From IMG/VR virus record IMGVR_UViG_3300028805_000054: a stretch of DNA of 64,000 bases. One strand, 5' to 3'. Below, piece by piece: positions 7,903-31,620 of the stretch. Each line of letters opens with the position of its first letter. Position 1 is the first letter of the stretch. The notes below the pieces were generated by a model. That model was not told where the DNA came from. It saw nothing but the letters and a program-made list of their open reading frames with translations, and did not search any database. Origin of the DNA: an uncultured virus (IMG/VR IMGVR_UViG_3300028805_000054). Its lineage: Duplodnaviria > Heunggongvirae > Uroviricota > Caudoviricetes. The translations under genes were made by a program, and so were the position numbers.

Positions 7903-8892
7903 TTATTTCTTGTTCTTTTTCTTAGAGCCGAAATTCTCGTTTATATCTTTTGTTGCTTTTTCTAGCTGTTCATCTGTAGCAGTTTTTAAAAATTTTTCAT
8001 CACCCTTCTTAATCTGCTTTTTGATTATAGCATTATTCATTTTGTATCCGGCAGTTCCCAATGCAGCAGCACCAAGACCAGCACCAATAGCGCCAGCAAT
8101 ATTACCTCTCTTAAGAGATTTATCTGTTAATTTTTTGAGTCGTTTGGAACTATTAACAGCACCCTTAGAGCCATTGACAGTTTCCTTAGCCCACTTATCT
8201 CTAGCCTTATCAATAACCTTCTCTAATTTTTTTCCTTTCTTCGTTTTTTCGGCTGCATCAAATCCTAATTTAGTACCAATAGATGCACCAACAGAACCCA
8301 TAGTAGCAGCTCCTAAAATACCTGCGGCTTTTCCAGCTTTATCCTGAACTTTCTTCGATGCATCTTTATAGTCCTTTTCCAGATCTTCGCGGGATTTTTT
8401 CTTTTCAGCAAATTCTTTCTGATCCTTCTTTTTCTTGAGAGCTTTATAGGCAACCGCACCAGCCACTGAAGCACCTACACCAGCGATACCAGCTTTTGTT
8501 CCCTTCTTGCTAACTTTTTCAAGAATCTTATCGGCCTTCTTAAGTTTCTTCTGAGCTGCTTTATTAATCTCAATATCCATTTGTTGATTTTTAGTCAGAG
8601 TAGGAATAGCTTTACCTCCAGCGGAAGCTTTCTTAGCTCTATCATAGATATTAGCATTTTCCATTTCAAGCTTACTAATAGCCTTCTTAACCTTCTTTCG
8701 GCCAATCTCAGCACCCAGACCTACAGTACCAGCACCAAGGCCTACAGTTGCGCCGCCGATTGTAGCAGCTTTAGCAACTTTCTCTTTCTTAGACTCTTCC
8801 TTCTTAGCGGCAAATTCTTTCTGAGTCTGAAATTCTGTTGTACTAAATGTTTTCTCTCCAATCTTAGAGAAAACTTTACGTCTAATATACAT
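7903..8892 (-). CDS. Lys-rich protein with four glycine-zipper hydrophobic segments and an N-terminal leader
   Basis: MYIRRKVFS...; GATVGLGAGTVGLGA, GIAGVGASVAGAV and similar segments; internal QKEFA repeats. Confidence 0.75.
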   Translation of the reverse strand: MYIRRKVFSKIGEKTFSTTEFQTQKEFAAKKEESKKEKVAKAATIGGATVGLGAGTVGLGAEIGRKKVKKAISKLEMENANIYDRAKKASAGGKAIPTLTKNQQMDIEINKAAQKKLKKADKILEKVSKKGTKAGIAGVGASVAGAVAYKALKKKKDQKEFAEKKKSREDLEKDYKDASKKVQDKAGKAAGILGAATMGSVGASIGTKLGFDAAEKTKKGKKLEKVIDKARDKWAKETVNGSKGAVNSSKRLKKLTDKSLKRGNIAGAIGAGLGAAALGTAGYKMNNAIIKKQIKKGDEKFLKTATDEQLEKATKDINENFGSKKKNKK

Positions 8893-8894
8893 AG

Positions 8895-9155
8895 CTAATT
8901 TTTAACATTCTTATCGGACTTCTTTTTACGTTTAGGTACAATACCTTTGAGTCCAGAAATAATATTCTTCGCCACCCTAGTCTTCTTTTTGACAGGCATG
9001 GTTTGTCCTATTGCTGTTTGATCGATTTTAGACACTACACCTTCAGCAGTATCCATCGTATCATGCAATGTATCTCCTACTTGAGCGGGAATGTACTTGA
9101 CTCCATTAATGGTTACTTCTCCATACCCGCTAAAGCCTTTTCTCTTAATAATCAT
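8895..9155 (-). CDS. Leader-family small protein
   Basis: MIIKRKGFSG start. Confidence 0.65.
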   Translation of the reverse strand: MIIKRKGFSGYGEVTINGVKYIPAQVGDTLHDTMDTAEGVVSKIDQTAIGQTMPVKKKTRVAKNIISGLKGIVPKRKKKSDKNVKN

Positions 9156-9259
9156 TTTCCTTCAGTGGGTTATAGTTATCATCTTGACTACTCTCCCAAC
9201 TCTGCGGACCATTTTCGACATTCTTAGTGAACGTCTTTTCTTTTAACTCTTCCATAATT

Positions 9260-9607
9260 TTAAACTTTCATTGGTACTGGTTGAACAGGTTTGGATCTTG
9301 TTTTATAGAGTCCAACATTTTTAGCCTCCTCACGTTGATCCTGTATTTTTGCTGTCTTGATTTGATTTTTTGTTTCCTCCTGATTTTCTTTGGCTGACTG
9401 TTTTTGTGCATCTGCCAAATTTTTCATAGAGTCTCGTCTTTCTTGAGCAGCAATTTTTTCACGAAGCCTTTGAGTCTGTAGAATTTGTCTCTGTTGCTTC
9501 ATTTGTTCAATCTGTAGGTCCCTTGAAGTTATCATTTGCTGGTTAAGAGCTTCCTGTTGTTCTGCCTGATCCGTTACTGCAAATTTTTTACTTCTTAAAA
9601 TCCTCAT
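9260..9607 (-). CDS. Leader-family Gln-rich coiled-coil protein
   Basis: MRILRSKKFA start; overlaps portal stop. Confidence 0.65.
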   Translation of the reverse strand: MRILRSKKFAVTDQAEQQEALNQQMITSRDLQIEQMKQQRQILQTQRLREKIAAQERRDSMKNLADAQKQSAKENQEETKNQIKTAKIQDQREEAKNVGLYKTRSKPVQPVPMKV

Positions 9608-11291
9608 CGTCTTCTGGATTTAGGTTGGGAGGTTCTACTCCTAGCTGTTCATATTGCGCATTAACTTTAGCCTGGAGGAGTTGCATATACTGTTCGAGAG
9701 ATTCGTCAGTTATGATTGCCTCTGTGTTCGGGTCAATGCTCTTAATTTGTGTCTGAATATAAGATAGATAAGCTTTTCCATCAATGAGTGGAGCAGCTGT
9801 TTCAATAGTTTGGATAGCATTTTGGATAATTGAAGTAACACCCTGTACCAAACCGTTGATAGATTCAGACTGGTTAATTTGGTTATTATATTCTACACTA
9901 GTCTTCTCTGATATATGAAGTTTTATGAGAGCGGGATCTAGTTCTTCATCATAGATTACCTTATAGATTGTACATACTAAGGCGACTACTGATGATTTGA
10001 TTCCATTCATAAAACCTGAGACTCTTGAATTAGCACGTTCCGATTGCTGAAGGACTTGCCATTTATTTCCGGAGGTTGAATCCATAAGAGTAGTAGGAAG
10101 TCCAAGAGGTCCTAGAATATTAGCCTTACAGTTATCTAGGGTTTGCATAATATCCAGGAGCTTGTCGGTCAGTTTGTCAAGAGGAAGCATAGAATTTTTA
10201 CCTCCTAGCGTTGAATTATAGTCTGGGACGAACTTAGCGCTTTGAGTGAGAGTGTTTTCAATGAAGGAAATAACATCAAACTGAGAGGACAAGAAAGATC
10301 CTAACTCATTTGTATTATTTGCCAGTTTAGTCGCACGTGCACATAGTTCGTTGGCGCTTTCTAGAGGAATGGATTTGTCAAACTGGAGAAGGAAAATTTG
10401 TACAGAGGAAAGATCACGAAGACTGATAAGAGATACTAGAAGCTCTTTAATTACCAGCTCTTTCACCTTAAGGATGATTGGATAGAGTAAAGGTTCAGAT
10501 GCCATATAGGATTCTTTCTTGAGTACCTTTTGTCTATTTTCATCTTTATTCTTAGTCCCTGATATCTTAGCTTGTTCCTTCTTATTCTTTGAAGCATTCC
10601 ATTCATCAGATAGGTCATTAATCAAGCGTAGGTTTTGTGATGCTATATAAACAATTTCTTCGGTAGGGATTTCATACATAACGCCATCATCTCCTTTGGC
10701 TAGATATATTTCTTCCATTTCCCCATCCTCATTCTTTTTCTTTTTGGTGATAACGCATACCGGATCGTTAATTTCCTCAATTCTAAACTTAAGGTGTCCA
10801 GTATCATCCCTTGACTTCTGAAGCATTCCGAAGTATTCACCAAAGAAAACATAATCTTGAAGATGATCTCTAATCCAGTCGAGAATCTTGAGATCTTTTG
10901 TTAGGATGTCATTTATACGTTCCGTTACTTCATTGTCTATTTCATCACCTTCCTCATTCATAATGGTTACTATCTGTTGACCAGTCCCATCTACGAGGAA
11001 GTTAGTAATATAATCTGCAAAAAAGTTTACCGCAAGTTTTGATATATCCAAGAGCTGATATCCTTTAAGCTCTGAAATTCTATCGAGGTACCCAGAAATT
11101 CGATTACTAGGACTTGCATTACCTAAAAGAGGGGATTTTCTATCATAACCATCGAAAATACTGTTAGTTGTTCCTCCGATAGGTTGATATCCTCCTCCAG
11201 TTCGGTATACATTTGATCTTATGGGCACTCTCGAGGAACCTATAGCAAATGAACCGAACATCTTTTGAGTGATATTTTCTGGTTTCTTCAT
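9588..11291 (-). CDS. Probable portal protein
   Basis: 567 aa, helical, portal-like LQDYVFFGEYF segment; in module with protease and terminase. Confidence 0.65.
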   Translation of the reverse strand: MKKPENITQKMFGSFAIGSSRVPIRSNVYRTGGGYQPIGGTTNSIFDGYDRKSPLLGNASPSNRISGYLDRISELKGYQLLDISKLAVNFFADYITNFLVDGTGQQIVTIMNEEGDEIDNEVTERINDILTKDLKILDWIRDHLQDYVFFGEYFGMLQKSRDDTGHLKFRIEEINDPVCVITKKKKNEDGEMEEIYLAKGDDGVMYEIPTEEIVYIASQNLRLINDLSDEWNASKNKKEQAKISGTKNKDENRQKVLKKESYMASEPLLYPIILKVKELVIKELLVSLISLRDLSSVQIFLLQFDKSIPLESANELCARATKLANNTNELGSFLSSQFDVISFIENTLTQSAKFVPDYNSTLGGKNSMLPLDKLTDKLLDIMQTLDNCKANILGPLGLPTTLMDSTSGNKWQVLQQSERANSRVSGFMNGIKSSVVALVCTIYKVIYDEELDPALIKLHISEKTSVEYNNQINQSESINGLVQGVTSIIQNAIQTIETAAPLIDGKAYLSYIQTQIKSIDPNTEAIITDESLEQYMQLLQAKVNAQYEQLGVEPPNLNPEDDEDFKK

Positions 11292-11382: not shown

Positions 11383-12174
11383 CTATTTTTGCCTCTTTAA
11401 GCGATAATATTCAGTTTTTAGCTTCAAACCATACCCATTCTTAGCATATCCTGGTCCATTGTAGATTCTTGCCATCCCGTTGAAGTCCTTGGAGATCATT
11501 AAGGGTACAATTCCTCTGCTCTTAATAAATTCTATACCGAGCGAGAGTTGGGAGAATTCATCTTTCGACATTTTAGAAACAAAATCCCCTACACTCTTTT
11601 CTCCTGCTAGCTTATAATTAGATCCCAGTATTTGTAAGAGTCCCCAAGAAGCCGACATCTGAGCTGCTTCCTTATTGATCTGACTTGCTTTCTCTAATCT
11701 TAACCATTCCTTCTCTCCGCCCTGATAGTTCTTAATCCACTTATCTGTTATAATGTCTGGATATTGTCTCATATATTGGTAAGGATCGATTCCCATGTTC
11801 CTCAGATTTTTAAAGAACTGATAGGACTCGAATAGAATGACGGGTCGATGAGAAGGCAAGAAACCAGAACTCCCAGACTCTATGGAAACGAAGGCCTTCA
11901 ACATCTCTGGTTCACAATCTAAGAGCCATCCGAAGAGAGGGTAATCAGATTCTACTACTTTTCCTTTTGGGTTATTTGAATATCTTTCTTCGACCAGTAT
12001 AGTTTTCCAAGATTTATATCCAAAAATCCCATCATCAACTAACCCTCTTGACTTCTGATACCCCTTTATTGCCTCCACTAATTCTTTATCACAGGTAATT
12101 CTAGGGGATAAGCCAAACATGATGGATAACTTTTTGACGTCCTCCCCAGATCTACCTTCACGTATTATAGTCAT
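11383..12174 (-). CDS. Endolysin: peptidoglycan-binding domain plus N-acetylmuramidase (DUF3380-like)
   Basis: YQKSRGLVDDGIFG PG-binding motif; ES.G.GF..RPVILFE, SASWGLLQILGSNY, ARIYNGPGY. Confidence 0.85.
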   Translation of the reverse strand: MTIIREGRSGEDVKKLSIMFGLSPRITCDKELVEAIKGYQKSRGLVDDGIFGYKSWKTILVEERYSNNPKGKVVESDYPLFGWLLDCEPEMLKAFVSIESGSSGFLPSHRPVILFESYQFFKNLRNMGIDPYQYMRQYPDIITDKWIKNYQGGEKEWLRLEKASQINKEAAQMSASWGLLQILGSNYKLAGEKSVGDFVSKMSKDEFSQLSLGIEFIKSRGIVPLMISKDFNGMARIYNGPGYAKNGYGLKLKTEYYRLKRQK

Positions 12175-12175
12175 T

Positions 12176-13612
12176 TTAACCTTGCATTTTAAGTAATTCC
12201 CCAGTCAATTTTCCATATCCTGAATCCGCTCCCTTATTTATTACTCCCATTACATAGGTTGAGAATGCCGTCTTAAGAGCATATTTAGCATTGGTCAGGT
12301 CTTTCTCTGTGGCCCCTAATTTCTTCATTAACTGGAGACCGTAATAGGATGCCATAAATTCGGATTGGAGGAGCGGAAATTTTAAGAGGAGTGATGTAAC
12401 ATATGAAACAACCTCAGGAACTGCACTCTTCGCCATTGATCCCATAAAACCTAGGAGGAACGAGGATAAAGTAACAAATTCATCTGAAAAAATGCCACTA
12501 TGGGAAGCTCTTTGAAGGGAACCTAGATACTTTTCGTTGTTCTGGAAGAAATGTCCAACTTCATGAAAAACGGCGGGAACAGGGTCGAGGTCAGAAATAA
12601 GAATCACGTCCCTTGGTTTTCCGTCATTATCTATTCCCTGAGCTCCGTATGCCCACCAATCCATCGCACATCTTTTTCTGAGAGGGTCGATATTATTCAT
12701 GGCTAGAGCTTTCGGATCACACAACATTTTTCTTAGTTTCTCTGCATCCTTTCCTTGTGTTAAGTTTAGGTAATAGGAGAAAGGTGTACAATCGGCTACC
12801 ACTAGTTTTGTCTTATATTCCTTCTCGATGTACTTGGTGAGATTAGGAATTAGAGCTGGAGTATAGGAAGCTCGATTTGCCTTGTCCCATTTCATCTCTA
12901 CCCTCTTTTTCATGATAGGTTGGATGATTAGTTTATATAAGGCAGAAGCGATAGAGGGAATATACTGTGTTATCTTCTCTATTACTGAAAAATTCTTAGC
13001 TTCTGTAACATCTTCTTCCACCAATCTAATTTTGTAGATATTGCCGGTGAAAAGTTTAAGTCCTACCAAAAATTCTGTAAGAGCCATCACCAAAGCTTCT
13101 ATCCCAGTTTTATCTTTGGGAACAGTTATGATAGGAGCTGGAAAATTGGAACCTCTCTCAACAAACTTATAATCAAATTCACCATTACAATATTTCGAGA
13201 GCGTGTAAAGGGAAAGTAAGTATTGATCAAACTCGGGGGATACAATCAGACCATTTTTGCAAACCCTGAAAACTAAGTCGAAATCCTGGTCTACGTTTTT
13301 TCCAATCTTTTTGTCAACACTAATCCAATCACGAGAAGGATAGTCGCGGTGAGATGCAGGGTGATTAATCATGGCCGTTCCTATCACGCTCTTAAAATCC
13401 GCAGGCTTAAACTTTCCCTTCTTAAGTCTCCCAAATTTTGTATTGGAAGGTTGAGTATTAAAGATCTCGTTTTGATACAAGTCCTTTCCCCTAAACTTCA
13501 TAAACTGGTAGATAGACTCCTGAGGAAAATCTTTGAGCGTGTGAACTTCGGCCATATCTTCCTCCCTGCCAATTTCCGCGAAGCTTTTCTCGTTAAATTC
13601 TATCATAAACAA
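12176..13612 (-). CDS. Multidomain protein with C-terminal HExxH zinc metallopeptidase
   Basis: VFHEVGH, downstream EFMAS and hydrophobic helices; EKSFA and KNFS motifs. Confidence 0.65.
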   Translation of the reverse strand: MFMIEFNEKSFAEIGREEDMAEVHTLKDFPQESIYQFMKFRGKDLYQNEIFNTQPSNTKFGRLKKGKFKPADFKSVIGTAMINHPASHRDYPSRDWISVDKKIGKNVDQDFDLVFRVCKNGLIVSPEFDQYLLSLYTLSKYCNGEFDYKFVERGSNFPAPIITVPKDKTGIEALVMALTEFLVGLKLFTGNIYKIRLVEEDVTEAKNFSVIEKITQYIPSIASALYKLIIQPIMKKRVEMKWDKANRASYTPALIPNLTKYIEKEYKTKLVVADCTPFSYYLNLTQGKDAEKLRKMLCDPKALAMNNIDPLRKRCAMDWWAYGAQGIDNDGKPRDVILISDLDPVPAVFHEVGHFFQNNEKYLGSLQRASHSGIFSDEFVTLSSFLLGFMGSMAKSAVPEVVSYVTSLLLKFPLLQSEFMASYYGLQLMKKLGATEKDLTNAKYALKTAFSTYVMGVINKGADSGYGKLTGELLKMQG

Positions 13613-13623
13613 ATTCTTATATA

Positions 13624-13992
13624 TTATTTATTCTTTTTAGAGTCTTTCTTTTTCTTGAGAGCATATAGACCGGCTCCAACAGATGCAGCTCCTAATGCAA
13701 TACCTGCTTTTCCTAATTTCTTAGAAGCATTTTCGCTCTTTTTAATTGCCCTATCCACCCTTCTGGTATATCTTTCTTCTAGCCCAGGTGTTTTATCAAA
13801 TCTTTCATCCAATACGGCAGGACCAATATCTTTATGAACAAAAGTTAAATAATCTGCTTTATTTTTTAAATACTTAGATCCTAACCCAGCTGCAATAGAC
13901 CCAGCACTACCAACGGCAGCTACTTTACCTGCAACTTTAGCTTTCTTCTTATCTTTCTCTGATTTTTCAGAGAATAAACGTTGTATAATCAT
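13624..13992 (-). CDS. Leader-family Lys-rich glycine-zipper protein
   Basis: MIIQRLFS start; GIALGAASVGAGLYALKKKK. Confidence 0.75.
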   Translation of the reverse strand: MIIQRLFSEKSEKDKKKAKVAGKVAAVGSAGSIAAGLGSKYLKNKADYLTFVHKDIGPAVLDERFDKTPGLEERYTRRVDRAIKKSENASKKLGKAGIALGAASVGAGLYALKKKKDSKKNK

Positions 13993-13998: not shown

Positions 13999-14787
13999 TT
14001 AATGTTTATTTGAATGATAGGCTGCCAACATTTTCTCACATTTTTCCTTACTATCACTCTTAACATCCCAGAACGTAGGAGGATTAGTTTTCATGCTGAC
14101 AATTCTCCAAGACCCATTATACTTATGAATCACTCCTTCACCGTTTTCTACCTTCTTTACGATCGAGGCAGGAACTATTTCACGATTCCCAGGTTTCTTG
14201 TTTCCTTTCTTTGGTGGTTCTTTATCCCCAAATTCCTTCTGCTCTTTTCCGTCAAGATCCTTTATGGCACCTTCAATCACCTGTACTTCATCCTTCGGTA
14301 TTTTCACAGTCAGATAGAAAACATCATCTAAGCAATCATTCTCAAGTTTCACCACATAAGCATCAGGATAACGGAGCTCAACCTGATACATAAATTTGGC
14401 CAGAGTTTCGAAATAATTACTCCAGATACCTCTTCCATTAAGTCCACCAGAAACACATACAGTATCTCCCTCCGACTTATCTTCCATAACCACAAACTTA
14501 CCGATCTTCATGGTATCGATGTGGTTTACGATTTTTTCTATAACTGCCTGAAGATTCTCGGAGTATAGTTTTTCCTCATTGGCAGCTTCTTCGGCAATCT
14601 CTGGAACTTCGGCTTTCATTTCTTCCACCTTATCCATCATCTCCTTAATTGCCTTTCCATTTTCCTTCACCTCCGGAACTTTGAGAGCATCTGTCAAAGA
14701 ATCATTCAAAGCTTGTTCCGCCCCATCCTTATAACCTTCAATATATGCTTCTCTCTCCGAATGGCATTTTGTTCTCAGTATTAACAT
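13999..14787 (-). CDS. Leader-family multidomain hypothetical protein
   Basis: MLILRTKCHS start; internal KLYS, KEFG. Confidence 0.65.
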   Translation of the reverse strand: MLILRTKCHSEREAYIEGYKDGAEQALNDSLTDALKVPEVKENGKAIKEMMDKVEEMKAEVPEIAEEAANEEKLYSENLQAVIEKIVNHIDTMKIGKFVVMEDKSEGDTVCVSGGLNGRGIWSNYFETLAKFMYQVELRYPDAYVVKLENDCLDDVFYLTVKIPKDEVQVIEGAIKDLDGKEQKEFGDKEPPKKGNKKPGNREIVPASIVKKVENGEGVIHKYNGSWRIVSMKTNPPTFWDVKSDSKEKCEKMLAAYHSNKH

Positions 14788-15266: not shown

Positions 15267-15836
15267 TCAATCCTTTTTCTCAGACTCTTTCTTAGCCTTT
15301 TTCTTGTCGACCAGTTTCTTTGCGCCAATACCAGCTGCAACAACTCCACCAGTAGCTAAGGCGATCTTACCCTTATTCTTCTTAGCTAACTCTATGGCAT
15401 CTCCGATTCTAGCATCTCTTTTTAAGTTTTCTACCTTACGCCAATTTTTAGAAAACTCTTCAAAATTACTGCTGGTTGTTTTTCCAGATCTAGTAAATCT
15501 TTCAGATACTCTCTTTTTAGCCTCTGGATTAGTCCCCATCGGAGATGCTGAATTAACAATATCTCCCGGCTTTGCTTTATTAATAGAATCGTGAATAAAA
15601 TAGGCTCCTTTTCCCTTTCCAAGATTAGATCTTTTAGAAGTCTCTAATGGCATTCCCAAATTATCTTTTCCTGTTCTAATGGCTTTTCTGCCTTGTCGAA
15701 TTTTATCTGCTTCATTCTGAATTTCAAACTTATCTGGAATAAAACTCGAACCCTCAGCCTTTTTAGCCATATCTAGATCATATTTATGTCTTCTAGCTTT
15801 CTGTTCTTTACTAGAAAATAAACGTTGTATAATCAT
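15267..15836 (-). CDS. Leader-family Lys-rich glycine-zipper protein
   Basis: Start re-called to MIIQRLFS at 15836; C-terminal GKIALATGGVVAAGIGAKKL. Confidence 0.75.
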   Translation of the reverse strand: MIIQRLFSSKEQKARRHKYDLDMAKKAEGSSFIPDKFEIQNEADKIRQGRKAIRTGKDNLGMPLETSKRSNLGKGKGAYFIHDSINKAKPGDIVNSASPMGTNPEAKKRVSERFTRSGKTTSSNFEEFSKNWRKVENLKRDARIGDAIELAKKNKGKIALATGGVVAAGIGAKKLVDKKKAKKESEKKD

Positions 15837-16892: not shown

Positions 16893-17342
16893 TTATCTCA
16901 TTATATTATATGTGGCATGGATTTCGTCTCTCCCCTCATCGTTAGATTTGTGATCTAACTTATAGCCCTTCCAAATCTTGACTATCGGAAACTCACCACC
17001 ACTAAAACTTCCCGTAACTTCCTCCTTTGTGATCTTCCCGTTTGACAATTCCTCTACTTTCTTGGCGATTATGTCGGACGGAATTTCACTATATATCTCG
17101 GTCCCATCATGGCTAACGTCTCCGGGGTCATCAATCTCCCAAAATTTTCTGAAGACATCGTAAGTGCAGAGAGACGAACACCCTATCTTCGGATCTGCAT
17201 AAAGCTTCATAATTCCATAGAGCTTCAAGGCAAAATCGGAGAGGATGTGATCAATAATTTCTCGATCAGTGGTACCCGGAGGAAATCTAAACATACCACC
17301 AATCTTATGATCACTGAAAAATTTTGAACGTATTAGTATCAT
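16893..17342 (-). CDS. Leader-family protein, paralog of 19285-19713
   Basis: MILIRSKFFS start; near-identical to the 19285 protein. Confidence 0.75.
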   Translation of the reverse strand: MILIRSKFFSDHKIGGMFRFPPGTTDREIIDHILSDFALKLYGIMKLYADPKIGCSSLCTYDVFRKFWEIDDPGDVSHDGTEIYSEIPSDIIAKKVEELSNGKITKEEVTGSFSGGEFPIVKIWKGYKLDHKSNDEGRDEIHATYNIMR

Positions 17343-17628: not shown

Positions 17629-18159
17629 TTATTTCTTCAATTCACTAAGAATCTGTTCTTTAGATTCTTTTTCCTTCTTCTTCTCCTTGGCTTTCTTTAC
17701 TCCAGCATCAATTCCATCAATCGCCAAAGATCCGCCTAAAGCACCGGCCCCTATCAATCCCCACTTCTTTGTTCTGGGATTCTTTAAAATTTCTTTTCCC
17801 TTCCCTGTGGCTTTCTCTAAGATTCCCTTTTCAACCTCCTTTGGTTTTGGAGTTCTCTTAGTTGTATCACGAATTGAAGAAGACCAATGATCTAAATCTT
17901 TCATCTGTGACTTATATCTTGACTCTACCTCTTCAGCAGTTATACGTTTTCTTCCGACCTTCTTGCCTTTATCATAGATGTCTTCAAAGTTTTCTCCAAG
18001 TCCAGATTTTCTAAGTCCCTCTGCTCTTTCAGCCTGTATATTATCACGACGAGCATTAATCTCTTGCCTAGCCGCTTTCAACTCCTCAGCCTTTTTCTTC
18101 CTGTCCTCTTCTTTTTTCAGATGTGTCCAGGTTCGGCTAAATAGACGCTGTATAATCAT
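17629..18159 (-). CDS. Leader-family Lys-rich glycine-zipper protein
   Basis: MIIQRLFS start; WGLIGAGALGGSLAI followed by a basic tail. Confidence 0.75.
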   Translation of the reverse strand: MIIQRLFSRTWTHLKKEEDRKKKAEELKAARQEINARRDNIQAERAEGLRKSGLGENFEDIYDKGKKVGRKRITAEEVESRYKSQMKDLDHWSSSIRDTTKRTPKPKEVEKGILEKATGKGKEILKNPRTKKWGLIGAGALGGSLAIDGIDAGVKKAKEKKKEKESKEQILSELKK

Positions 18160-18647
18160 AGTCTATCAATCTTAGAAATAATTTGCTTTTCTAAGGATGC
18201 AATTTGTTTATAATTCTTGTCATCCTTATAAGCCTCTCCTATCTCATCGTCCTCTATAAGCTGTTTTTTCAGATAATCTTTGAGCTCATTTATTCCAATT
18301 TGTTTGAAGGATTTAAAGATTATTCCAGATTTTCTATATAGATTTCCACTCTTATCATACCAGATATTTGCAGAACCTAAATCAATATCATCTAAACTCC
18401 ATGTAAAAAGAGATTTATATATTTGATTATTCTTCTCCTCAGTAAACATCCCAATACAAGGAATAGGACCAACCATATATTCACCAGAATTTTGTAGTTG
18501 TTCTAATTTATAAAAATCCTTATTAATTCCTTGCTGGTAATACTTTTGAATTGGCTGAGGAAGTTCTTTTAGATTAGAGGGAGATGCCATTATTTTCTCC
18601 ACACGCTCTGCTCTCATCGAGAAAGCTTTTTGTCGTATTATAATCAT
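18156..18647 (-). CDS. Leader-family hypothetical protein
   Basis: Start re-called to MIIIRQKAFS at 18647. Confidence 0.7.
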   Translation of the reverse strand: MIIIRQKAFSMRAERVEKIMASPSNLKELPQPIQKYYQQGINKDFYKLEQLQNSGEYMVGPIPCIGMFTEEKNNQIYKSLFTWSLDDIDLGSANIWYDKSGNLYRKSGIIFKSFKQIGINELKDYLKKQLIEDDEIGEAYKDDKNYKQIASLEKQIISKIDRL

Positions 18648-20250: not shown

Positions 20251-20907
20251 TTATCTATTTTCTAAAAACCATAAAATTCCTTCCACGTATGTTCTCTGAA
20301 GCTCGTGGAATCCAATGTCTGAGGTAAGGTATTGAATATCGTCGTGGTTATCTTGAAATAAATTCTCAACCAATACCGCGGGACATTTAGTTTTTGTCAG
20401 CACGTATAATCTTTCCTCTAAGTCATGATCACCATCTGTCATATTTTCTCTCACCGGCTTTTGACCTTTCTCCCATTTCCCAAAGTTCTTATAATGTCTG
20501 AGATTCTTGTGTGCTGAAATCCATAAAAACTCTGCTAACAAATCCGACACTGTTCTTCCCGGGCTAGTATATACGCTCCAACCTCTAGCTCCTAACCACT
20601 TACCTTGATTTCCGGCTGCATTAACGTGGGTGGAGATATAGTAAATGTTTTGTCCTTTCCTTTTCTCTACTTCGGTATTAACAATCTCCACTCGTTTGGC
20701 CAATTCCTGTGACGTTGTAGTATCTTTCTTCATCATTAGTTCTGGCCAATCAATCATAACTTCCAACCCATAATCTTCGAGGATAGATTTTAGGTCAGTC
20801 ACAAATTCTCTACTCCAAACTGCCTCTCTAAATTTGCCATCTGGACTTTGTTTTCCTGGTGTTGTGTCGAGATGTGCAGTTCCTAAGATTATCAATGTTT
20901 CTTTCAT
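20251..20907 (-). CDS. N-acetylmuramoyl-L-alanine amidase (Amidase_3, Bacteroidetes-phage type)
   Basis: ILGTAH..TPGKQSPDG.FRE, ISTHVNAAG, CPAVLVENLFQDN. Confidence 0.9.
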   Translation of the reverse strand: MKETLIILGTAHLDTTPGKQSPDGKFREAVWSREFVTDLKSILEDYGLEVMIDWPELMMKKDTTTSQELAKRVEIVNTEVEKRKGQNIYYISTHVNAAGNQGKWLGARGWSVYTSPGRTVSDLLAEFLWISAHKNLRHYKNFGKWEKGQKPVRENMTDGDHDLEERLYVLTKTKCPAVLVENLFQDNHDDIQYLTSDIGFHELQRTYVEGILWFLENR

Positions 20908-21024: not shown

Positions 21025-23451
21025 TTAAAAGATTTCTTCTACCATTCCCTGTAAGCGCTGTCTAGTAATCTCTCTAGGGTCATCTACAGCTTGTTTTTCT
21101 AGTCCCTTCATAGTCATCGTATATCCAGGACTAACACCTAATTCTGTTCCTTCTAGCATATCAAGTCTAAGACCCCAACAACATTGTTCAATGGAGTCAA
21201 AGATATCCTTACTTCCTATACCATCGTTGGAATCAAAACTAGAAATATCATCATTTCCGGTTCCATCTGCTTTCCAAGTCCCCGAAGAAGCTTTAACAGG
21301 GTGATCAACTTTGATTTTACCACCAGGAGTTGATACATATCTTAGATCATATGCCTCACGAAGAAGTCTGTGATTGATTGGTATCTTAATTAGCTCCAAG
21401 TTTATAAGACTCTTTAAATATTGAGCTGGTTCTGGAAGACGATCAGTGCTAATGTTTCTACAAGGTATCATATCCCTCTCCAAATCTTGTTGTAGCTGTA
21501 TACTATGTGAAGAATCTGATGAAACCCTTACATCGTAGTATTTATTTAATTCTTTGATTAAATCGTAGAAATGAGAGATACTAGTTTGTTGTCCTGGAAT
21601 TCGTGATATTCCTATATTAACTAATGATTTTATTAGAGGAAATTCAACTTTATTAACTGTCTTTTTCCCTTCTAGCATTACTATACTTAATCCTGAGAGG
21701 TCATGTTTACTAGATAAATCTAATCCTACCCATAAAGGAGTGCGGTATGGAACTAATTCTAAGGCTTTTTTAATTTTATCGTAGAGTCTATCCTTAAGAT
21801 CAAAGAAATCAACGGCTATAATTTCAGGAAGTTTGTTTTTATATCCAGACATGCAGTTTACCAGATGACTTATATCTCCATTGAAAAACAACGAAGACCC
21901 AGCCAAAGGAACACCGGCTTTATCCATAAGGCATTTCCTCAGATCCATATTAGCCTCTGGAAGAAGCGATATTGGCATGTTAATGATTCTATCTGGATCA
22001 AACTCAGGAGATACTCTACCATTCTCATCAGGATAAATTTTCTGAGGTGGGGTTTTAGGATCTCCCGCATAAACCATGAAAGTATTATTCCCTGGTTGTT
22101 TGAGCTCTGGGTATAATTCTGGTCTTACATTCCATTGTGGCTCCGACACTGTCAATAGCATCTTTTTATCTGGAATCATCTCTTTGAATCTCTCAGTCGG
22201 TTGTGCGTCACCGTTGGCAGAGCTATCTAAAACAAATCCTCCAACAAGTTGAAGTGTTTTCTTACTAAAACGGCTATGTACACGTCCCCAAATTGTATTT
22301 AATGTATCTATAGCTAAATTATCTTGATTGTTACCTTCTAAGCCATTTCCCCAAAAATTAATTTCAGAAAAAAGCGCCCAACGTTTTATATTCCTTAGTT
22401 TCCTAAAGCACTGACTATATCTTAACTGATGTGAATATACATCAGCAAAACCCATTTCGAATGACGTATCAATAGTCACTCTACTCTCCCGATACGGAGA
22501 TAGTCGATACAGGTTCCCATAAAGGGCTTCCCACGGGGTTACCATGTCTTTATTTAAAAGATTTAGGCTTCACCGTTAGCCTTCATTATCTGAAGACCCG
22601 ATTAATGACATCGTAAAGGTTTAACAGGCCTGAGCTAACTGCTTGATTATCAGCCATATACGACCAAATCGGTACCCAATCCAGAACGTCTAGATCTTGG
22701 ACTTCCTACATATACATTAAATTTAAGTTTTGGATTTTTTGTTGTTCTAAAGAAAGGGGATAATTGTAATACATCTTTTTTAAACCAATATACAAAATCT
22801 CGCTCTGCTAATTCAGTATTGACGTGAAAGACAATTGCTGAGAGAGGGCGTCTCGCGATACCTAATGTTTTTGCCGGATTAGAAAGGCAGAGAAGGCGAC
22901 TAAAATTATAAGATAACTGTATTCTTCCAATTGTGCTCTTACCTACAACTATCTGATTGTCAGGTAGTTACGTCATTATATCTCTATAATGTTAAGACTA
23001 TATTATCATTTAAATGTCACATCTAATTAGTCGTTGAAGTTATCATACTTTTATAGATAACTAGCTGATTTTCCTTAAGGAATTTCCAGCTTTTAATGTG
23101 ATTATATAGGACTAGGTATAAGTTTAATCCTATGGCACCACTCAGGATTTGATATGGTTTTGCCGTTAATATACAAGAGGGGTAAATTTCTTTTAATACC
23201 TTCTTCCAATAGTTAAAAACACTAGACCCTCCATTGAAAAAGAATTCATTACCAAGATAAAAATCGTCGGAATAAAACTCTTCAATCTCAGGTGGTTTTC
23301 TAGAGTAGCCTAAGGCTTTAAGGGCGACCCAAGTACGCTCCTCATCAGTTAATTTACTATACTGTACCTCTAGACTAGCATTTTCGATCTCCCGTGCATT
23401 GAAATCTTTACTATTGCTATGATCTATAAAATTTCTCTCATTCATACTCAC
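21025..23451 (-). CDS. terL: Terminase large subunit, three exons (23451-23127, 22945-22663, 22381-21025; 654 aa spliced)
   Basis: Splicing restores Walker A SGAIGLGKST and Walker B region GTDLVWALFSEINF; C-terminal nuclease VGLDLS...SKDIFDS; exon lengths sum to 1965 nt (in frame). Confidence 0.85.
22382..22662 (-). ncRNA. Group I intron (IA-like, 281 nt, no ORF) in terL
   Basis: P AACGGTGAA, Q AACCCCGTGG, R GTATCGACTA, S AAGATATAGTC; extra hairpins after P7; 5' exon ends in U, intron ends in G. Confidence 0.85.
22946..23126 (-). ncRNA. Compact group I intron (181 nt) in the terL Walker A codons
   Basis: P1 ATAGGAT/GTCCTAT with U-G at the splice site; P10 TACCTA/TAGGTA; P3 TCACAT/ATGTGA; R TTCAACGACTA; S ATATAGTCT; terminal G. 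Confidence 0.85.
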
Positions 23452-24550: not shown

Positions 24551-26305
24551 TTACGGATTAATTACTAAATCTTCTTCCGGATATAAGTACCAGTCTGTGC
24601 TTTCTATCATATTCCTTCCCCAGTTTCCAAAGAGAGGGTAGGATTTATCTATTCTTACTTTTTCTTTTGACCATTTGAAATCGTAGGGGATCATAATACC
24701 GTGTGGATCTTCTCCAATTTTACTAACGTATACTTTATTCCCTTTAGTTCTGTTTTCAAGATATGGTTGGCAGTTAGGATCAAGAAACGAGAATCTAGAA
24801 GAAACAGTTACCAGATCTTCTATATAAGGATAGTTTTTGGTTTCTGTATTAATGAATCCTCGACTATCACTTCCAAAGATCTTATGAACTTCTACATTCT
24901 GATTAATAACATTGCCATTTACCTGATGTAGATATAATTCATCGTTTGCTCCGCTTGCCATAAGAATATACTTAACATGCGTATTGTCCTCTCTAGTGGC
25001 CTTGATTACACAGTCCTGTAAATCAAAATCGCCCTGCTCAGTGTCCTCGAATAAGAATGTATAAAAATTCTTTTCGATGTAAGGAGGAATATCAATTGCT
25101 TCTAGGCTTCCTTCCACAAGTACCCAAATATCTTGTCCGTCGGCATCACTACAACTTTCTATACATAAAATGTTTTTCCCGTTGACAGTAATCCACGCCA
25201 TTCTAGGATCTCCATCTCCAAGACCTGAACTCTTAAAATGACCATACTTATTTATTTCATTATTCATTCTACCGTCACCCCAAGATTCTCCCTGCTTCTG
25301 ACCATTATATTGAGTTAAATTGCCACGAAGCATAAAACCAATCTTATAACCGGCCGGGAATTGGAAACTACCATTACCATTTTCATCCCAGTAAATCAAA
25401 GCATAAGCATGAAATCTTGAAAGTACATCATTAGCTTTTATAGAATTTTTGAGGGTAATAGCTCTATAGCATTTTAGGTTTTTCAGGTCAGGTTCTTCAT
25501 TTGCCTTAAAGTAATAATAGTAAAGCTCTGAATTTATAACCTCATTAGAAGTACCATCATTCCTATAAATTGGACAAACCAGAATAGGATCAGTTTCGCC
25601 GGTGGTAATAGGATAAGCATTTTCATTATAAATTCCAGTTTGCTTCACTTTCTCCAAATTTCTATATGCTCTACCGTTTTTGAAGTAAGATAGAATTATA
25701 GTTTTTAAAGTATTAGCAAAGTCAGGATCAAAATCGGGAACCTCCATAATCAGTTGTTCTTCATTGGCTGGAGCATAGAGGGTTACATTATTCCATCCTC
25801 TCTGTTTACCGTACGAATCAAAGGGTCCAGTCAATGTTAGTGTGGAAGTAGGCAGAGTATAAGGGAAGTCAATATTAGTAGCAGCTCTAGTTCTTGCCTT
25901 TGATTCTCTCTCAAAATTTACTTCTCTATCTCCGTGCTCAAATTGTTTTAGATTATAATATCCGTTTTCCGTTATACAAGCAACATAAAGGCCTATATAT
26001 TTATCAGGGGTATCATAGTTTAGAGTCACTTTCTGGTCTCCGCTTATAGAGTTTAGGACCTTCAGTGATGTGCTCTCCTCCGAATCCATTGAGTAAACTA
26101 GAACTTGGATTGTTTTTGTTCCCGGCAATGGATTGATCGTTATTGAGCCATTTTTAGTCATACACCAGTCATGATTCTTGTCAAACTGGTATCCAAATGT
26201 CTGTTCTGCTTTCTCTTTCTGACTTGGTTGTGTTTGCTCAGGAAAAGAATGTGAACAACTAGCCAGGATCAGAGTTAGCATTAAAATTTTCAGTGTGTTT
26301 TTCAT
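24551..26305 (-). CDS. Bacteroidetes-type lipoprotein with DUF4842/LruC-like C-terminal domain
   Basis: Start re-called to MKNTLKILMLTLILASC (lipobox); FEDTEQGDFDLQD.V, PHGIMIP.DFKW..EK.RI..SYP.F..W, DWY..P. Confidence 0.75.
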   Translation of the reverse strand: MKNTLKILMLTLILASCSHSFPEQTQPSQKEKAEQTFGYQFDKNHDWCMTKNGSITINPLPGTKTIQVLVYSMDSEESTSLKVLNSISGDQKVTLNYDTPDKYIGLYVACITENGYYNLKQFEHGDREVNFERESKARTRAATNIDFPYTLPTSTLTLTGPFDSYGKQRGWNNVTLYAPANEEQLIMEVPDFDPDFANTLKTIILSYFKNGRAYRNLEKVKQTGIYNENAYPITTGETDPILVCPIYRNDGTSNEVINSELYYYYFKANEEPDLKNLKCYRAITLKNSIKANDVLSRFHAYALIYWDENGNGSFQFPAGYKIGFMLRGNLTQYNGQKQGESWGDGRMNNEINKYGHFKSSGLGDGDPRMAWITVNGKNILCIESCSDADGQDIWVLVEGSLEAIDIPPYIEKNFYTFLFEDTEQGDFDLQDCVIKATREDNTHVKYILMASGANDELYLHQVNGNVINQNVEVHKIFGSDSRGFINTETKNYPYIEDLVTVSSRFSFLDPNCQPYLENRTKGNKVYVSKIGEDPHGIMIPYDFKWSKEKVRIDKSYPLFGNWGRNMIESTDWYLYPEEDLVINP

Positions 26306-26465
26306 GATTTTATTATATTTAGACTTTTGATATTTAATTAACCAAAAGATATTAAGTTTCTCCGCCATAGATAGGAGAGAGTAAGTGTGAAGAACCAATT
26401 TCAACCACGTATCCCTAAGCGTTTCCCAGGTCTCTCTCGAATCTTGCATCTTTTTCAGTTTGGTG

Positions 26466-27026: not shown

Positions 27027-27893
27027 TCATAACCACCTATTTAATTTCGGTTTCTCCCACTTTTCTAACTTCTCCTTCCAATCCCACCGCAATAAAGGAG
27101 AATCAAGTTGACGAGGACCATATTTATAAGTTTCCTTCTTGATTGGCTTTTTCGTCTCTACCTCAATGACCCCTAATAATTCTGGCTTAACATTTACTAA
27201 ACTCCAATATTCTTCCACCAGCAAACCATAAGGACAATCTGAGAGGCCCGGTTTTATTAAGCTTTCATTCCGGAGACGAGTAGCACGATAAACATACAAG
27301 AGTGGTTCAGGCGTTTCGTTCAAGTACTTTCCAGAGATTGCATCATCCACCGTTGTATAGAGTTGAAATCTTGGGAGTTGATGATCGATATATTTTTTGG
27401 AAGTCAGAAAATTACGTGGGATAATGGGATCAAGCAATTCACGTTCTAGTTTGGGGAGTGGAGATACAAAGATTAAGTTTTTCAGGATTCCAGTTCTTTT
27501 ACCAACTGAGACTGAGAATGATTTTTGCTTCATCTCTAATCTCTTTCCACTATCCTCGTTCACCACAAATCCCATCTTTTTATAGAGGTTTATGGCAGGA
27601 GTATTATTAGAGTCAACAGTTAAACTAGTACATCCAGAATCTAGGGCTCGCTTCACTAGATATTCACCATAACCTTGTCCCCTGTATGATTTGGTTATCT
27701 CTAAGGCTATGATCATTTCTCCTTGCCAACCAACATAACCTATGAGACTATTACCAGAGATTAACATAACGCCAGTACATCCTTTATCAGTTCTAGCATG
27801 TCGGAGAAGGTTGTCAAGAGATTTATACTTTAGGACATTCTCTTTGTTGTAGGGAATTTCCTTTACGTTATTTTTTAATCTTGGTATTAACAT
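27027..27893 (-). CDS. GNAT acetyltransferase fused to a second domain
   Basis: YRGQGYG and NTPAINLYKKMGF GNAT motifs, then a QKSFS linker and a second domain. Confidence 0.75.
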   Translation of the reverse strand: MLIPRLKNNVKEIPYNKENVLKYKSLDNLLRHARTDKGCTGVMLISGNSLIGYVGWQGEMIIALEITKSYRGQGYGEYLVKRALDSGCTSLTVDSNNTPAINLYKKMGFVVNEDSGKRLEMKQKSFSVSVGKRTGILKNLIFVSPLPKLERELLDPIIPRNFLTSKKYIDHQLPRFQLYTTVDDAISGKYLNETPEPLLYVYRATRLRNESLIKPGLSDCPYGLLVEEYWSLVNVKPELLGVIEVETKKPIKKETYKYGPRQLDSPLLRWDWKEKLEKWEKPKLNRWL

Positions 27894-29878: not shown

Positions 29879-29922
29879 AGAAAAATGAACAGATAAAGAT
29901 TAGCTCTCCTATCTGTCATTCT

Positions 29923-30381
29923 TTAATAATTATCTCCTCCATATATTTTGTGCTCAGCACATGTTTCTAATACAATTTTCTGAGTATAACTATAAGTACC
30001 GTCCCCAAGAAGTTTTAATTCTGGTTCGGCCACTATGTAATTAAATCTATCGTGATCATTTATTATCTTTGATAGACGGTGAAATTTTCTTATATTACTA
30101 GAATAATCTCCTAGAATATGAGTGTCTCCACCAGAAGGTCCGTCCTCATATAAATATCCCTGTCTCACCTCTTTTTCAAAATTATCAACTATCTTTTGAC
30201 TTGATGGCATAAGAGTTTTATAATCCTTTTGGAAAGTTGAAGTCTTCTGGATAATTCTTTTTGATATTACATCTGGTCTCTTCATTATTTCCTCATCCAT
30301 CTCGAACCTATCTTTCTTAACTGGCATAGGATCTCTCCTAAATATCTTTTGAAGGAAATTTAATTTTCTTAGTATAATCAT
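29923..30381 (-). CDS. RelE/YoeB-like ribonuclease toxin fold with leader-like N-terminus
   Basis: TFQKDYKTL...GDTHIL...RLSKIINDHDRFNYIV resembles the Txe/YoeB pattern. Confidence 0.55.
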   Translation of the reverse strand: MIILRKLNFLQKIFRRDPMPVKKDRFEMDEEIMKRPDVISKRIIQKTSTFQKDYKTLMPSSQKIVDNFEKEVRQGYLYEDGPSGGDTHILGDYSSNIRKFHRLSKIINDHDRFNYIVAEPELKLLGDGTYSYTQKIVLETCAEHKIYGGDNY

Positions 30382-30384
30382 AAT

Positions 30385-30609
30385 TTAGTCTCCTCCCTCG
30401 TAATAATCACTAAATAGCCACTTCTCCTCGTCCGTCCAGTCCGAAAAAGATTTTATTTTTAACTTTGAGACGTCTCCTTTGTAATGTCTCCTTGCTAACT
30501 CTTTCTTTACATCAATCACATATTCTTCTTGACCCTCTACATCTTCCGGAACTTCAATCCATCTTTTTGTTGCATGATCAAATACCTTAACAAATTTTAT
30601 TTTATCCAT
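30385..30609 (-). CDS. Small acidic protein upstream of toxin-like gene; paralog of 24187-24432
   Basis: 74 aa; 3-nt gap to toxin gene; own CCTTAT promoter core at ~30640. Confidence 0.6.
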   Translation of the reverse strand: MDKIKFVKVFDHATKRWIEVPEDVEGQEEYVIDVKKELARRHYKGDVSKLKIKSFSDWTDEEKWLFSDYYEGGD

Positions 30610-30680
30610 ATTATTATAAAAATTTTATTAAATTCTCACCTATAAGGCTTTCCGTGCTAATCTTTATCCATTCTTATAGC

Positions 30681-30736
30681 TCCTGAGGCCTAATCGAATA
30701 GTAGATACAGGGCTTCTTTCCCTTATCACCTCAGGA
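30681..30736. repeat. Structured dispersed repeat, copy 2
   Basis: TCCTGAGG..CCTCAGGA stem enclosing CCTAATCGAATAGTA. Confidence 0.7.
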
Positions 30737-30751
30737 TATCGAGTTTTGCAG

Positions 30752-31003
30752 TCACATTGTTTTTTCAATTCGTTTGGCAAAATCGGAGTCACTTAGTCTA
30801 TTTCTTTCAGTTCGGCTAAGTCTCTTTTTGAAAGCAACCTCATCGTTAACAACCTTTTCGGGATGTTCTGTGATTACCGTTTTCTCTAAGTTGCTCTTTA
30901 AGAAATTACGCTGTTTTTGCCTCACTCCTTTCAATCTCTTTTCGGCTAACTCTAAAGCATGTTTATCTCTAAGAACTTTTCCGAATAAACGTTGGATAAT
31001 CAT
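30752..31003 (-). CDS. Leader-family basic small protein
   Basis: MIIQRLFG start. Confidence 0.65.
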   Translation of the reverse strand: MIIQRLFGKVLRDKHALELAEKRLKGVRQKQRNFLKSNLEKTVITEHPEKVVNDEVAFKKRLSRTERNRLSDSDFAKRIEKTM

Positions 31004-31620
31004 TTCTTTTCTTCTTTTTTGGCTTTCTTTTTGTCAGCCAGTTTCTTAGCTCCAATACCAGCTGCCACCACACCGCCAGTAGCTAAAGCAATCTTACCAC
31101 CTTTCTTCAGGTTTTTCTTAAGTTGTTCGCCAGCATCCTTTTTAGCTCTCAGTTCAGCAGCTTTGGCTTCATGTTTAGCAATAGAGACTTTAGAGTCTTC
31201 AGCTTTCTTTTTAGCCGCCTCTTTTGCTTCCTTTAATGGTTTAGCCCTTTCTGACAGATTCTCCTTATATTTTTTCATACCCTCTTCCGTCATTTTATCG
31301 GCCAATTTATCCCCTTTTTGAAAAAGACGATAACTATTCTTCCCAGACTTTATTTGTCCAGACTCTTCTACCGGATTCTTTTTGAAAGCAGTCTTTTGAA
31401 GTTTATCTAAATCCTTTCCCCTTTTCTTGGCTGTTTTCTTTGTACCCTTATCTACTTTTAAAATAATACTAGCAGAATTAAGAGCGTTTGTTGATTCTCC
31501 AAGAGGACTTAAGGGAGTCCCACCACGTTTGTAATATTTTCTGAGTCTGGCTTTCTGTGTTTTTGAGTTAAACTCTCTTTGCTCTATCTCAGAGAATGTT
31601 TTTTGTCTTTTTATAATCAT
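31000..31620 (-). CDS. Leader-family Lys-rich glycine-zipper protein
   Basis: MIIKRQKTFS start; C-terminus nearly identical to the 15267 protein. Confidence 0.75.
   Translation of the reverse strand: MIIKRQKTFSEIEQREFNSKTQKARLRKYYKRGGTPLSPLGESTNALNSASIILKVDKGTKKTAKKRGKDLDKLQKTAFKKNPVEESGQIKSGKNSYRLFQKGDKLADKMTEEGMKKYKENLSERAKPLKEAKEAAKKKAEDSKVSIAKHEAKAAELRAKKDAGEQLKKNLKKGGKIALATGGVVAAGIGAKKLADKKKAKKEEKK

Follow-up and report, generated by a model that had tools for sequence, protein, structure and literature searches.

Why would 13 to 15 genes of a single tailed phage, encoding largely unrelated proteins, open with nearly the same eight to ten residues? This question is raised by a 64,000-nucleotide stretch of DNA from an uncultured virus of the Caudoviricetes (IMG/VR record IMGVR_UViG_3300028805_000054), which is referred to here, in its full length of 64 kb, as the window. 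The shared leader, hereafter called the tag, takes forms such as MIIQRLFS or MIILRQKQFG. An earlier, sequence-only reading had proposed that it loads a variable set of effectors into the phage head for injection. Our results make it rather probable that the tag serves as a short propeptide at the N-terminus of proteins in a T4-like prohead-core system and is cut by the phage's own gp21-like protease. Variable cargo does form a subset of its carriers. However, the tag also heads the conserved core gene that follows the portal gene (in 12 of 12 relatives), and the modules of the scaffold open with tag-like units, suggesting that it marks prohead-core membership and processing rather than effectors alone.

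The window is part of the highly divergent genome of an uncultured large tailed phage, whose host probably belongs to the gut or rumen Bacteroidota. Hardly any gene in phages of this kind has an established function, and 29 of the 36 proteins in the left half of the window lack a match to PHROGs. Between about 2 and 31.6 kb, the minus strand of the window carries the head and packaging (late) module, an assignment that follows from the presence of the large terminase subunit (TerL) at 21025-22545.

Conservation of the N-terminal tag

Screening of all six frames of the window with a strict pattern, M-x-[IL]-x-R-x(1-4)-[FH]-[SGA], returned 15 matches, compared with a mean of 0.87 and a maximum of 6 in 200 mononucleotide shuffles. 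Each falls on the minus strand, within 8892-31620, and marks the start of an open reading frame (ORF), 1 to 36 codons past the preceding in-frame stop. Thirteen head ORFs of 63 to 329 aa and have Phe as the ninth or seventh residue, which is P1, the position ahead of the predicted cut; one has His instead (14787), and one belongs to a 17-codon remnant (17599). Each leader start listed in the sequence-only reading was recovered on the minus strand at its position, although the estimate of about 18 carriers comes down to 13 to 15 solid cases. The start at 24432 (MLIYRKVFD) is probably a false positive, given that KVFD recurs in the body of its paralogue 30385-30609 (MDKIKFVKVFD), while those at 27893 and 30381 are half-tags. 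The first of these, which heads a GNAT gene, retains the first half of the tag but is degenerate and lacks an F/Y-S/A/G site; of two homologues of this gene product, one begins with MILKRKGYK and the other has no extension (MVKEIEYNKEN). No full leader had been noticed in the right half, and we likewise found none at gene starts right of 31620, where the sole looser match heads a 9-codon ORF.

The tag recurs in 12 related IMG/VR loci, each of which spans 10 kb either side of the portal gene (21 kb per locus). The window and these relatives together contain 106 tagged ORFs (at least 50 aa in length and within 40 codons of an upstream in-frame stop), as opposed to a mean of 0.43 and a maximum of 3 in 30 shuffles. 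All but one of them (105 of 106) lie on the portal strand, with 2 to 11 per locus in the relatives. Ten-residue tags account for 86 of the 106 and follow the consensus M-I-[IV]-L-R-x-K-x-[FY]-[SATG]; a shorter form reads M-I-I-Q-R-L-F, followed by S or G. Among the 86, P1 is occupied by Phe (66) or Tyr (20) and the next position, P1', by Ser (50), Ala (22), Thr (8) or Gly (6), and residues 2-5 (I-[IV]-L-R) are conserved as strongly as the site itself. Individual starts can also be followed across loci: MYIRRKVFS, which heads 7903-8892, is also found in L001, L003 and L004; starts of the type MIEFKEKRF/S (a slash marks the predicted cut), comparable to that of the Zn-peptidase gene 12176-13606, are present in L002; and the L001 ORF matching 13999-14787, the gene with His at P1, begins with a canonical MLILRHKFF/S.

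This conservation resides in the peptide. In the window, Arg5 is encoded by CGT, AGA or CGA and the Ser after Phe by TCT, AGC, AGT or TCG, and the 86 ten-residue tags use all six Leu, all six Arg and all six Ser codons at the conserved positions, along with both Phe, both Lys and three Ile codons. The use of all synonymous codons for Leu, Arg and Ser indicates that selection acts on the tag peptide rather than on the DNA. The sequence-only reading had named conservation at the nucleotide level only as an observation that would speak against it; the codon variety instead places the conservation in the amino acids.

Downstream of the tag, the proteins are largely unrelated, as had been proposed. 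An all-against-all BLASTP comparison of 18 bodies revealed one paralogue pair (17342/19713, 82% identity) and one shared segment, a Gly/Ala-rich stretch of 14 residues common to 15836 and 31620. About six bodies are Lys-rich (17-24% Lys, pI about 10) and contain Gly/Ala-rich hydrophobic segments, whereas others are acidic. Searches of Pfam, PHROGs, NCBIfam and PADLOC assigned no family to the tagged bodies, except for the GNAT and Zn-peptidase proteins, and gave nothing for the bodies previously described as toxin-like, so that this label is unsupported. The family of cargo protein 19710-20249 retains the tag in all 10 full-length homologues, down to 41% identity in the body. In a structural model of this protein, residues 1-16 are disordered (pLDDT below 50) and followed by a confidently predicted, compact alpha/beta body, suggesting that the tag is exposed as a free disordered end. 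The modelled body bears a weak likeness to SMI1/KNR4-type immunity proteins, and a Foldseek search with the model returned nothing at E up to 0.001. A function of the tag as a secretion or lipoprotein signal was also considered and rejected, because it is too short and has no hydrophobic core.

Head-core proteins and the protease candidate

Along the direction of transcription, the portal candidate is followed by small proteins, a homing-endonuclease insertion (4402-6132), ORF 3031-4284, ORF 2235-3119 and a long acidic ORF that exits the window at base 2; the next gene in the relatives encodes a capsid candidate of 473-500 aa. This arrangement matches the T4 gene order 20, 67, 68, 21, 22, 23, i.e. 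portal, small core proteins, protease, scaffold and capsid (the last as seen in the relatives). The portal candidate is 60-70% identical in the 12 IMG/VR loci (on contigs of 6.6 to 353 kb), and its nearest ESM Atlas clusters are those of Portal_T4 (score 0.97); it gave no match in Pfam, in PHROGs or in a tblastn search of 50,697 phage records. The position directly after the portal, held in T4 by gp67/gp68, is taken by the tagged ORF 9260-9607, and orthologues of its product, in which M1, R5 and K7 are invariant, occur in all 12 loci.

The last four residues of the tag, [KR]-x-[FY]-[SAGT], recur inside the head-core proteins. Relative to 500 residue shuffles per protein, the motif is strongly enriched in the acidic scaffold-like ORF 2-2230 (13 sites versus 0.59), where Ser follows 13 of the 23 Phe residues (1.18 expected), as well as in ORF 2235-3119 (6 versus 0.63) and in the protease candidate, ORF 3031-4284 (4 versus 1.0). 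Minus-strand genes left of 32 kb contain 57 sites versus 21 in shuffles, and genes right of 32 kb 36 versus 27. The three modules of the scaffold-like protein, which has homologues with 38-46% identity in 9 of the 12 loci, each open with M-x-R-[LM]-F-[SA] (residues 7-12, 364-369 and 508-513), corresponding to the short tag MIIQRLFS apart from its first residues. ORF 2235-3119 probably starts at the ATG at 3044 (MDRIKLF/S), which would give it a tag-like N-terminus too. In the capsid candidate, all six relatives examined show AKMF/S and QK[TL]F/SGY within the first ~65 residues, directly preceding a stretch that is invariant in five aligned sequences. None of the 46 internal sites in six core proteins is preceded by [ILV][ILV]-x-R, the corresponding positions being mostly acidic. 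Since residues 2-5 are conserved in the tags and absent from these internal sites, they appear to serve something beyond marking a cut site.

The enzyme that would recognize this motif is likely encoded by ORF 3031-4284. Its N-domain (residues 1-190) shows the fold of T4 gp21 and herpesvirus assemblin, and ESM Atlas places the ORF 3031-4284 protein next to Peptidase_S77/S80 clusters (scores 0.92-0.93). In a library of 1.84 billion proteins, its family numbers 237 representatives when clustered at 50% identity (E up to 1e-3). H49 (72/72) and S137 (74/74) are invariant. The four K-x-[FY]-S sites of the linker are conserved in 9 aligned homologues, and all 30 two-domain homologues, many only ~25% identical, carry at least two motif sites just after the N-domain. 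The motif thus appears to travel with the gp21-fold protease family. We read this co-variation from the linkers of the distant homologues themselves; three single-protein queries for their loci in IMG/VR yielded only a 34-residue contig end or nothing.

Proposed propeptide function and its alternatives

In the propeptide model that we favour, late genes on the portal strand would yield tagged precursors, and the first half of the tag, with its hydrophobic residues and Arg5, would bring these precursors into the assembling core, composed of the acidic scaffold polyprotein, the small core proteins and the protease. Once the shell has closed, the gp21-like serine protease (ORF 3031-4284, H49/S137) would cut after the aromatic residue of [KR]-x-[FY]/[SAGT], thereby stripping off the tags, dicing the scaffold at 13 or more sites, releasing itself from its own C-terminal helical domain and, in the relatives, trimming about 60 residues off the capsid protein. 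The trimmed proteins would remain in the head and exit with the DNA at infection. Predicted in this scheme are the cut and the precise bond affected, a targeting function of residues 2-5, the presence of the proteins in virions and their ejection. The sequence-only reading had likened the leader to the capsid targeting sequence (CTS) of T4 and linked it to the head protease. The recurrence of the terminal motif in the scaffold, the protease linker and the relatives' capsid, together with the gp21 fold, bears out this link, whereas packaging, removal and injection are steps that we infer.

The tag looks like an enlarged and re-coded version of the 'load into head, then clip' signal of T4, whose internal proteins IPII and IPIII both start with MKTYQEFIAE/A (translated from the T4 record). 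Here and below, published systems are described as far as the available parts of the cited papers go. In T4, propeptides of 10-19 residues target proteins to the core, and the residues for targeting and processing are distinct, with positions 4 and 7 of the CTS serving the former and positions 8 and 10 the latter (PMC9026906). The internal proteins of T-even phages are diverse, and the CTS alone is conserved (PMC3012670). As in the T4 system (IPI/IPII/IPIII, Alt; gp21), a propeptide of about 10 residues is found on otherwise unrelated, mostly basic proteins; it ends, here as judged by sequence alone, in a head-protease consensus site that recurs in the scaffold, the core and the capsid propeptide, and the gene for a gp21-fold protease lies between those for the portal and core proteins and that for the scaffold. 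However, the sequences are unlike, since T4 has Glu at P1 (MKTYQEFIAE/A) and the window's consensus, M-I-I-L-R-x-K-x-[FY]/S, combines an aromatic residue at P1 with a basic one at P3. With 13 to 15 tagged genes in 24 kb, the repertoire also far exceeds that of T4, the tag extends to conserved core proteins and matches the starts of the scaffold repeat modules, the protease carries an extra helical C-terminal domain and fails the Pfam Peptidase_S77 model, and the host is probably a member of the Bacteroidota.

A second precedent is provided by the phiKZ-type giant phages, for which we know of no shared leader. In phiKZ, 201phi2-1 and SPN3US, a diverged protease of the gp21 type (gp175/gp245) processes many inner-body and ejection proteins of the head at a short motif, and several redundant sites in the propeptides as well as a self-cutting protease resemble the situation described here; these enzymes, however, cut after Glu (S/A-x-E), in contrast to the uniform tag of 8-10 residues before an aromatic P1 (PMC9026906, PMC10052503). 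Literature searches, with supplements lying outside their scope, retrieved no paper on the tag strings, on a prohead protease that cuts after Phe or another aromatic P1, or on the tag motif in jumbo phages. The available part of a paper on Jug phages mentions portal and prohead protease merely as divergent marker genes (PMC12880540).

Several observations weigh against the propeptide reading. Some concern the T4-like assignments of the core proteins. An hhalign comparison of the protease family with T4 gp21 gave a probability of only 21.7%, placing H49 and S137 on the segments GELNHPPR and GVSSRGLG, which we take to hold the catalytic residues of gp21. Pfam Peptidase_S77/S80 was not detected at E up to 10 for 9 family members or at E up to 0.1 for 40 distant homologues, and the family profile matched none of the PDB sequences, so that the connection to gp21 draws on the fold and the weak hhalign alignment. 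The capsid candidate of the relatives has no sequence likeness to T4 gp23 (hhalign probability 2.1% over 21 columns). Other observations concern the tag and its carriers. Some tag-like starts have no canonical site (14787, with His at P1; 27893; 30381), and the muramidase 11383-12174 and the amidase 20251-20907 sit among the tagged genes yet are untagged. The amidase contains one interior motif site (0.44 expected) and the muramidase none; the location of the latter beside the portal suggests that it is a virion-associated wall hydrolase loaded by another route. The notion of a variable cargo is based on partial genomes, as the loci of the relatives comprise 10 kb on each side of the portal. 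Finally, carriers of the tag include conserved core proteins, and the scaffold modules begin with tag-like units, so that the tag may signal processing rather than targeting.

Because of this last point, a signal for processing only is the main alternative, although we regard it as unlikely. The tag would then simply be the N-terminal-most protease site, for instance within a pro-sequence whose task is to prevent damage by membrane-active or lytic proteins before these are enclosed in the shell, and head entry would be set by other parts of the proteins. The C-terminal half of the tag is indeed the same motif as that of the 46 internal sites, tag-like units open the scaffold modules, and conserved core proteins are tagged as well as variable ones; moreover, a high Lys content could draw many of the tagged proteins into the head through their charge, given that the scaffold is acidic. 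Such a function would, however, leave residues 2-5 unaccounted for, which are conserved like the site in the 86 tags yet missing from all 46 internal sites. In addition, a stretch of only seven to nine residues would hardly be expected to inactivate so many different folds, and the tag forms a free disordered end in the single model made (19710-20249).

It is distinctly improbable that [KR]-x-[FY]-S acts as an uncleaved docking motif, which would bind the inside of the shell, the portal or the helical domain of the protease and retain scaffold and cargo without any cut. Its repetition in the scaffold and its presence on cargo would suit a multivalent binding motif. Nevertheless, the sites are concentrated in disordered linkers beside the gp21-fold protease, including the protease's own linker, as in the self-processing described for gp21 and gp175 (PMC9026906). 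They also sit just ahead of the invariant start of the conserved capsid body, and P1' is limited to small residues, as is typical of a protease subsite.

A published parallel for the bond itself comes from Staphylococcus phage 80alpha, in which the host protease Prp cuts between F and A to remove 13-14 residues from the capsid and scaffold proteins; these share their N-terminal sequence with ribosomal protein L27, and other phages have the same motif on non-homologous proteins (PMC5744158). The window resembles this system in having a shared leader on non-homologous phage structural proteins with a predicted cut between Phe and a small residue, and the tag is of similar length. A signal of this type, read by the host protease that matures L27, is nonetheless very improbable here. 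The 80alpha system involves a host cysteine protease, a single site per protein and a Firmicute host, whereas the window encodes a gp21-fold serine protease candidate of its own, with whose family the motif co-occurs, and contains dozens of internal sites without counterpart in 80alpha, 13 of them in the scaffold-like ORF and four in the protease linker. There is no Prp-like gene among the window proteins scanned. Peptidase_Prp (PF04327) was also found in none of three metagenome-assembled genomes (MAGs) of Prevotellaceae/Bacteroidaceae, which may be incomplete and represent an inferred host (the same search was positive in 3 of 14 control genomes); this clade contains the closest cellular homologues of a window gene, that of the 632-aa lipoprotein. 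Furthermore, most tagged genes have no Shine-Dalgarno sequence upstream, which would fit a Bacteroidota host better than a Firmicute one. Scarcely credible, finally, is a translation-initiation or recombination element in place of a functional peptide, since, despite the A/T-rich tag starts and the near-identity of the first 24 nt in the MIIQRLFS subgroup (as expected from recent duplication or cassette exchange), the tags exhaust the Arg, Leu, Ser, Phe, Lys and Ile codons, undergo AGA/CGT and TCN/AGY switches that alter two or three bases yet keep the residue, and follow 45 nt without any shared sequence visible by eye.

If the tag is a prohead-core propeptide, the window would encode a gp21-type head protease predicted to cut after Phe/Tyr rather than Glu and a CTS-type repertoire much larger than that of T4. 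The start M-I-I-L-R-x-K-x-F-S could then flag head-internal, probably injected proteins in uncultured Bacteroidota phages, and, as with the T4 CTS, the tag could be used to load chosen proteins into the heads of a cultured relative. More tentatively, we suggest that the tag may represent a portable packaging code, used by a widespread clade of large gut/rumen Bacteroidota phages whose protease has switched from Glu to an aromatic P1 (with Lys/Arg at P3) and acts on a scaffold polyprotein made up of tag-headed modules, and whose tagged genes form a fast-turning injected arsenal. The scaffold's own opening of 8-10 residues, once acquired, would then admit new cargo genes to the head. Each genome would thus hold an arsenal of 13 to 15 tagged genes, with products ranging from Lys-rich Gly-zipper proteins acting on DNA or membranes to anti-defence proteins such as the SMI1/KNR4-like 19710-20249, and the head and injected proteome of uncultured phages would become readable from their sequence alone. 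Aspects that would become testable are the proteins delivered, the turnover rate of the set and the scaffold opening as the origin of the tag.

Feature coordinates and neighbouring genes

The features discussed above are compiled in Table 1, together with several further genes of the late block.

Table 1. Features of the minus-strand late block, with window coordinates; slashes mark predicted cuts, and 'strict pattern' denotes a match to the search pattern given in the text.
Position	Strand	Feature	Basis or remarks
2-2230	-	Acidic scaffold-like ORF, 743 aa seen, C-terminal end past the window's left edge	Three repeat modules, 13 motif sites
2235-3119	-	Small head-core protein with zinc ribbon	Weak zinc-ribbon Pfam matches; homologues in 9/12 loci
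3031-4284	-	Prohead protease candidate	N-domain 1-190, linker 190-268, helical C-terminal part 266-414
4402-6132	-	HNH-type homing endonuclease, 576 aa, repeated treble-clef zinc-finger modules	PHROG 559/681, E 5e-87
7903-8892	-	Tagged protein MYIRRKVF/S, 329 aa, 22% Lys, pI 10.1	Four Gly/Ala-rich hydrophobic segments; second site EKTF/S at residue 16
8895-9155	-	Tagged protein MIIKRKGF/S, 86 aa, pI 10.2	Strict pattern
9260-9607	-	Tagged core protein MRILRSKKF/A, 115 aa, Gln-rich coiled coil	First gene after portal
9588-11291	-	Portal candidate, 567 aa	Position and size; N-terminus MKKPENITQKMF/GS (QKMF/G), one motif site
11383-12174	-	Muramidase with PG-binding domain, untagged	Directly upstream of portal
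12176-13606	-	Zn-metallopeptidase-like protein (HEVGH), variant tag MIEFNEKSF/A	Pfam Zn_peptidase_2, 6.2e-8; one N-terminal motif site
13624-13992	-	Tagged protein MIIQRLF/S, 122 aa, 20% Lys, two Gly/Ala segments	Strict pattern
13999-14787	-	Tagged protein MLILRTKCH/S, 262 aa, acidic, His at P1	C-terminal 62 aa conserved in relatives
15267-15836	-	Tagged protein MIIQRLF/S, 189 aa, pI 10.2, C-terminal Gly/Ala segment	Strict pattern
16893-17342	-	Tagged protein MILIRSKFF/S, 149 aa, acidic	Paralogue of 19285-19713, 82% identity
17546-17599	-	Tag-only remnant MIIQRLF/SEKKGKFSKK, then stop, 17 codons	Strict pattern
17629-18159	-	Tagged protein MIIQRLF/S, 176 aa, 19% Lys, Gly/Ala segment	Strict pattern
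18156-18647	-	Tagged protein MIIIRQKAF/S, 163 aa	Strict pattern
19285-19713	-	Tagged protein MILIREKFF/S, 142 aa, acidic	Strict pattern
19710-20249	-	Tagged protein MIILRQKQF/G, 179 aa	Strict pattern
20251-20907	-	Amidase_3, untagged	Adjoins terminase
21025-22545	-	Terminase large subunit	tblastn matches to genes annotated as TerL in Vibrio and other phages, lowest E 1e-20
23023-23445	-	140-aa ORF, just upstream of TerL	Conserved in 10/12 related loci, 37-49% identity
23460-23651	-	Tagged protein MKIKRQKTF/A, 63 aa	Strict pattern
24551-26449	-	Predicted lipoprotein, 632 aa, LILASC lipobox-like start, DUF4842 C-terminus	Within late block
27027-27893	-	GNAT acetyltransferase, half-tag MLIPRLKNN, doubtful member	No [FY]-[SAGT] site
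29923-30381	-	Doubtful member MIILRKLNFL	First half of tag, non-canonical P1'
30752-31003	-	Tagged protein MIIQRLF/G, 83 aa	Strict pattern
31000-31620	-	Tagged protein MIIKRQKTF/S, 206 aa, 24% Lys	Gly/Ala segment at the C-terminus, with 14 residues identical to those in the segment of 15267-15836

Within the head module, the HNH gene 4402-6132 is placed between a gene for a 227-aa head protein and the protease gene. A tblastn search detected no counterpart in the 12 related loci, so that it looks like a recent insertion. The 140-aa ORF 23023-23445 may encode the small terminase subunit or, as the TerL matches start near residue 56, a detached N-terminal part of TerL. The 632-aa lipoprotein, which has homologues with 39-42% identity in three Prevotellaceae/Bacteroidaceae MAGs, is the window's best clue to the host and possibly acts as a surface or exclusion protein. 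No tRNA genes were found in the 64-kb window.

A further tag-like start, MIVYRSKLF/T, is found in the head module of L002, where it heads a ferritin/Dps-like protein (13371-13784, plus strand; PHROG 'starvation-inducible regulator', 1e-6). The early region of the window contains an untagged, DUF5856-like ORF of similar size (52586-52981, minus strand), and the two may represent one body with and without the tag.

Two additional peptidase genes on the minus strand, encoding a ClpP-family protease (48795-49463; Pfam 1.8e-48) and an M42 aminopeptidase (41874-42923; 1.1e-52), belong to the non-structural block, far from the head genes. ORFs 35745-37832 (minus strand, 695 aa) and 53945-56095 (plus strand, 716 aa) have similar N-termini (MKKEKPIVVPYGIEYLGDWEKYFG and MEKHKIIVPEGVRYIGEVNPETEERLWDYE, respectively) and no family match, and are possibly paralogues on opposite strands. 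The small ORFs 32500-32823 (plus strand) and 39038-39349 (minus strand) have a Tyr-rich start in common, with the strings ...ETFTYHHIQLETIILKV and ...ERFTYHFIQLETII, and appear to form a small paralogous family in the early region. Genes of the mobile-nuclease type are located on the plus strand at 50335-51624 and 56171-57658, encoding an RRXRR + HNH protein (Pfam 6e-59) and a T5orf172/MUG113-domain protein, which brings the number of selfish-nuclease candidates in the window to at least three, counting the HNH gene 4402-6132.

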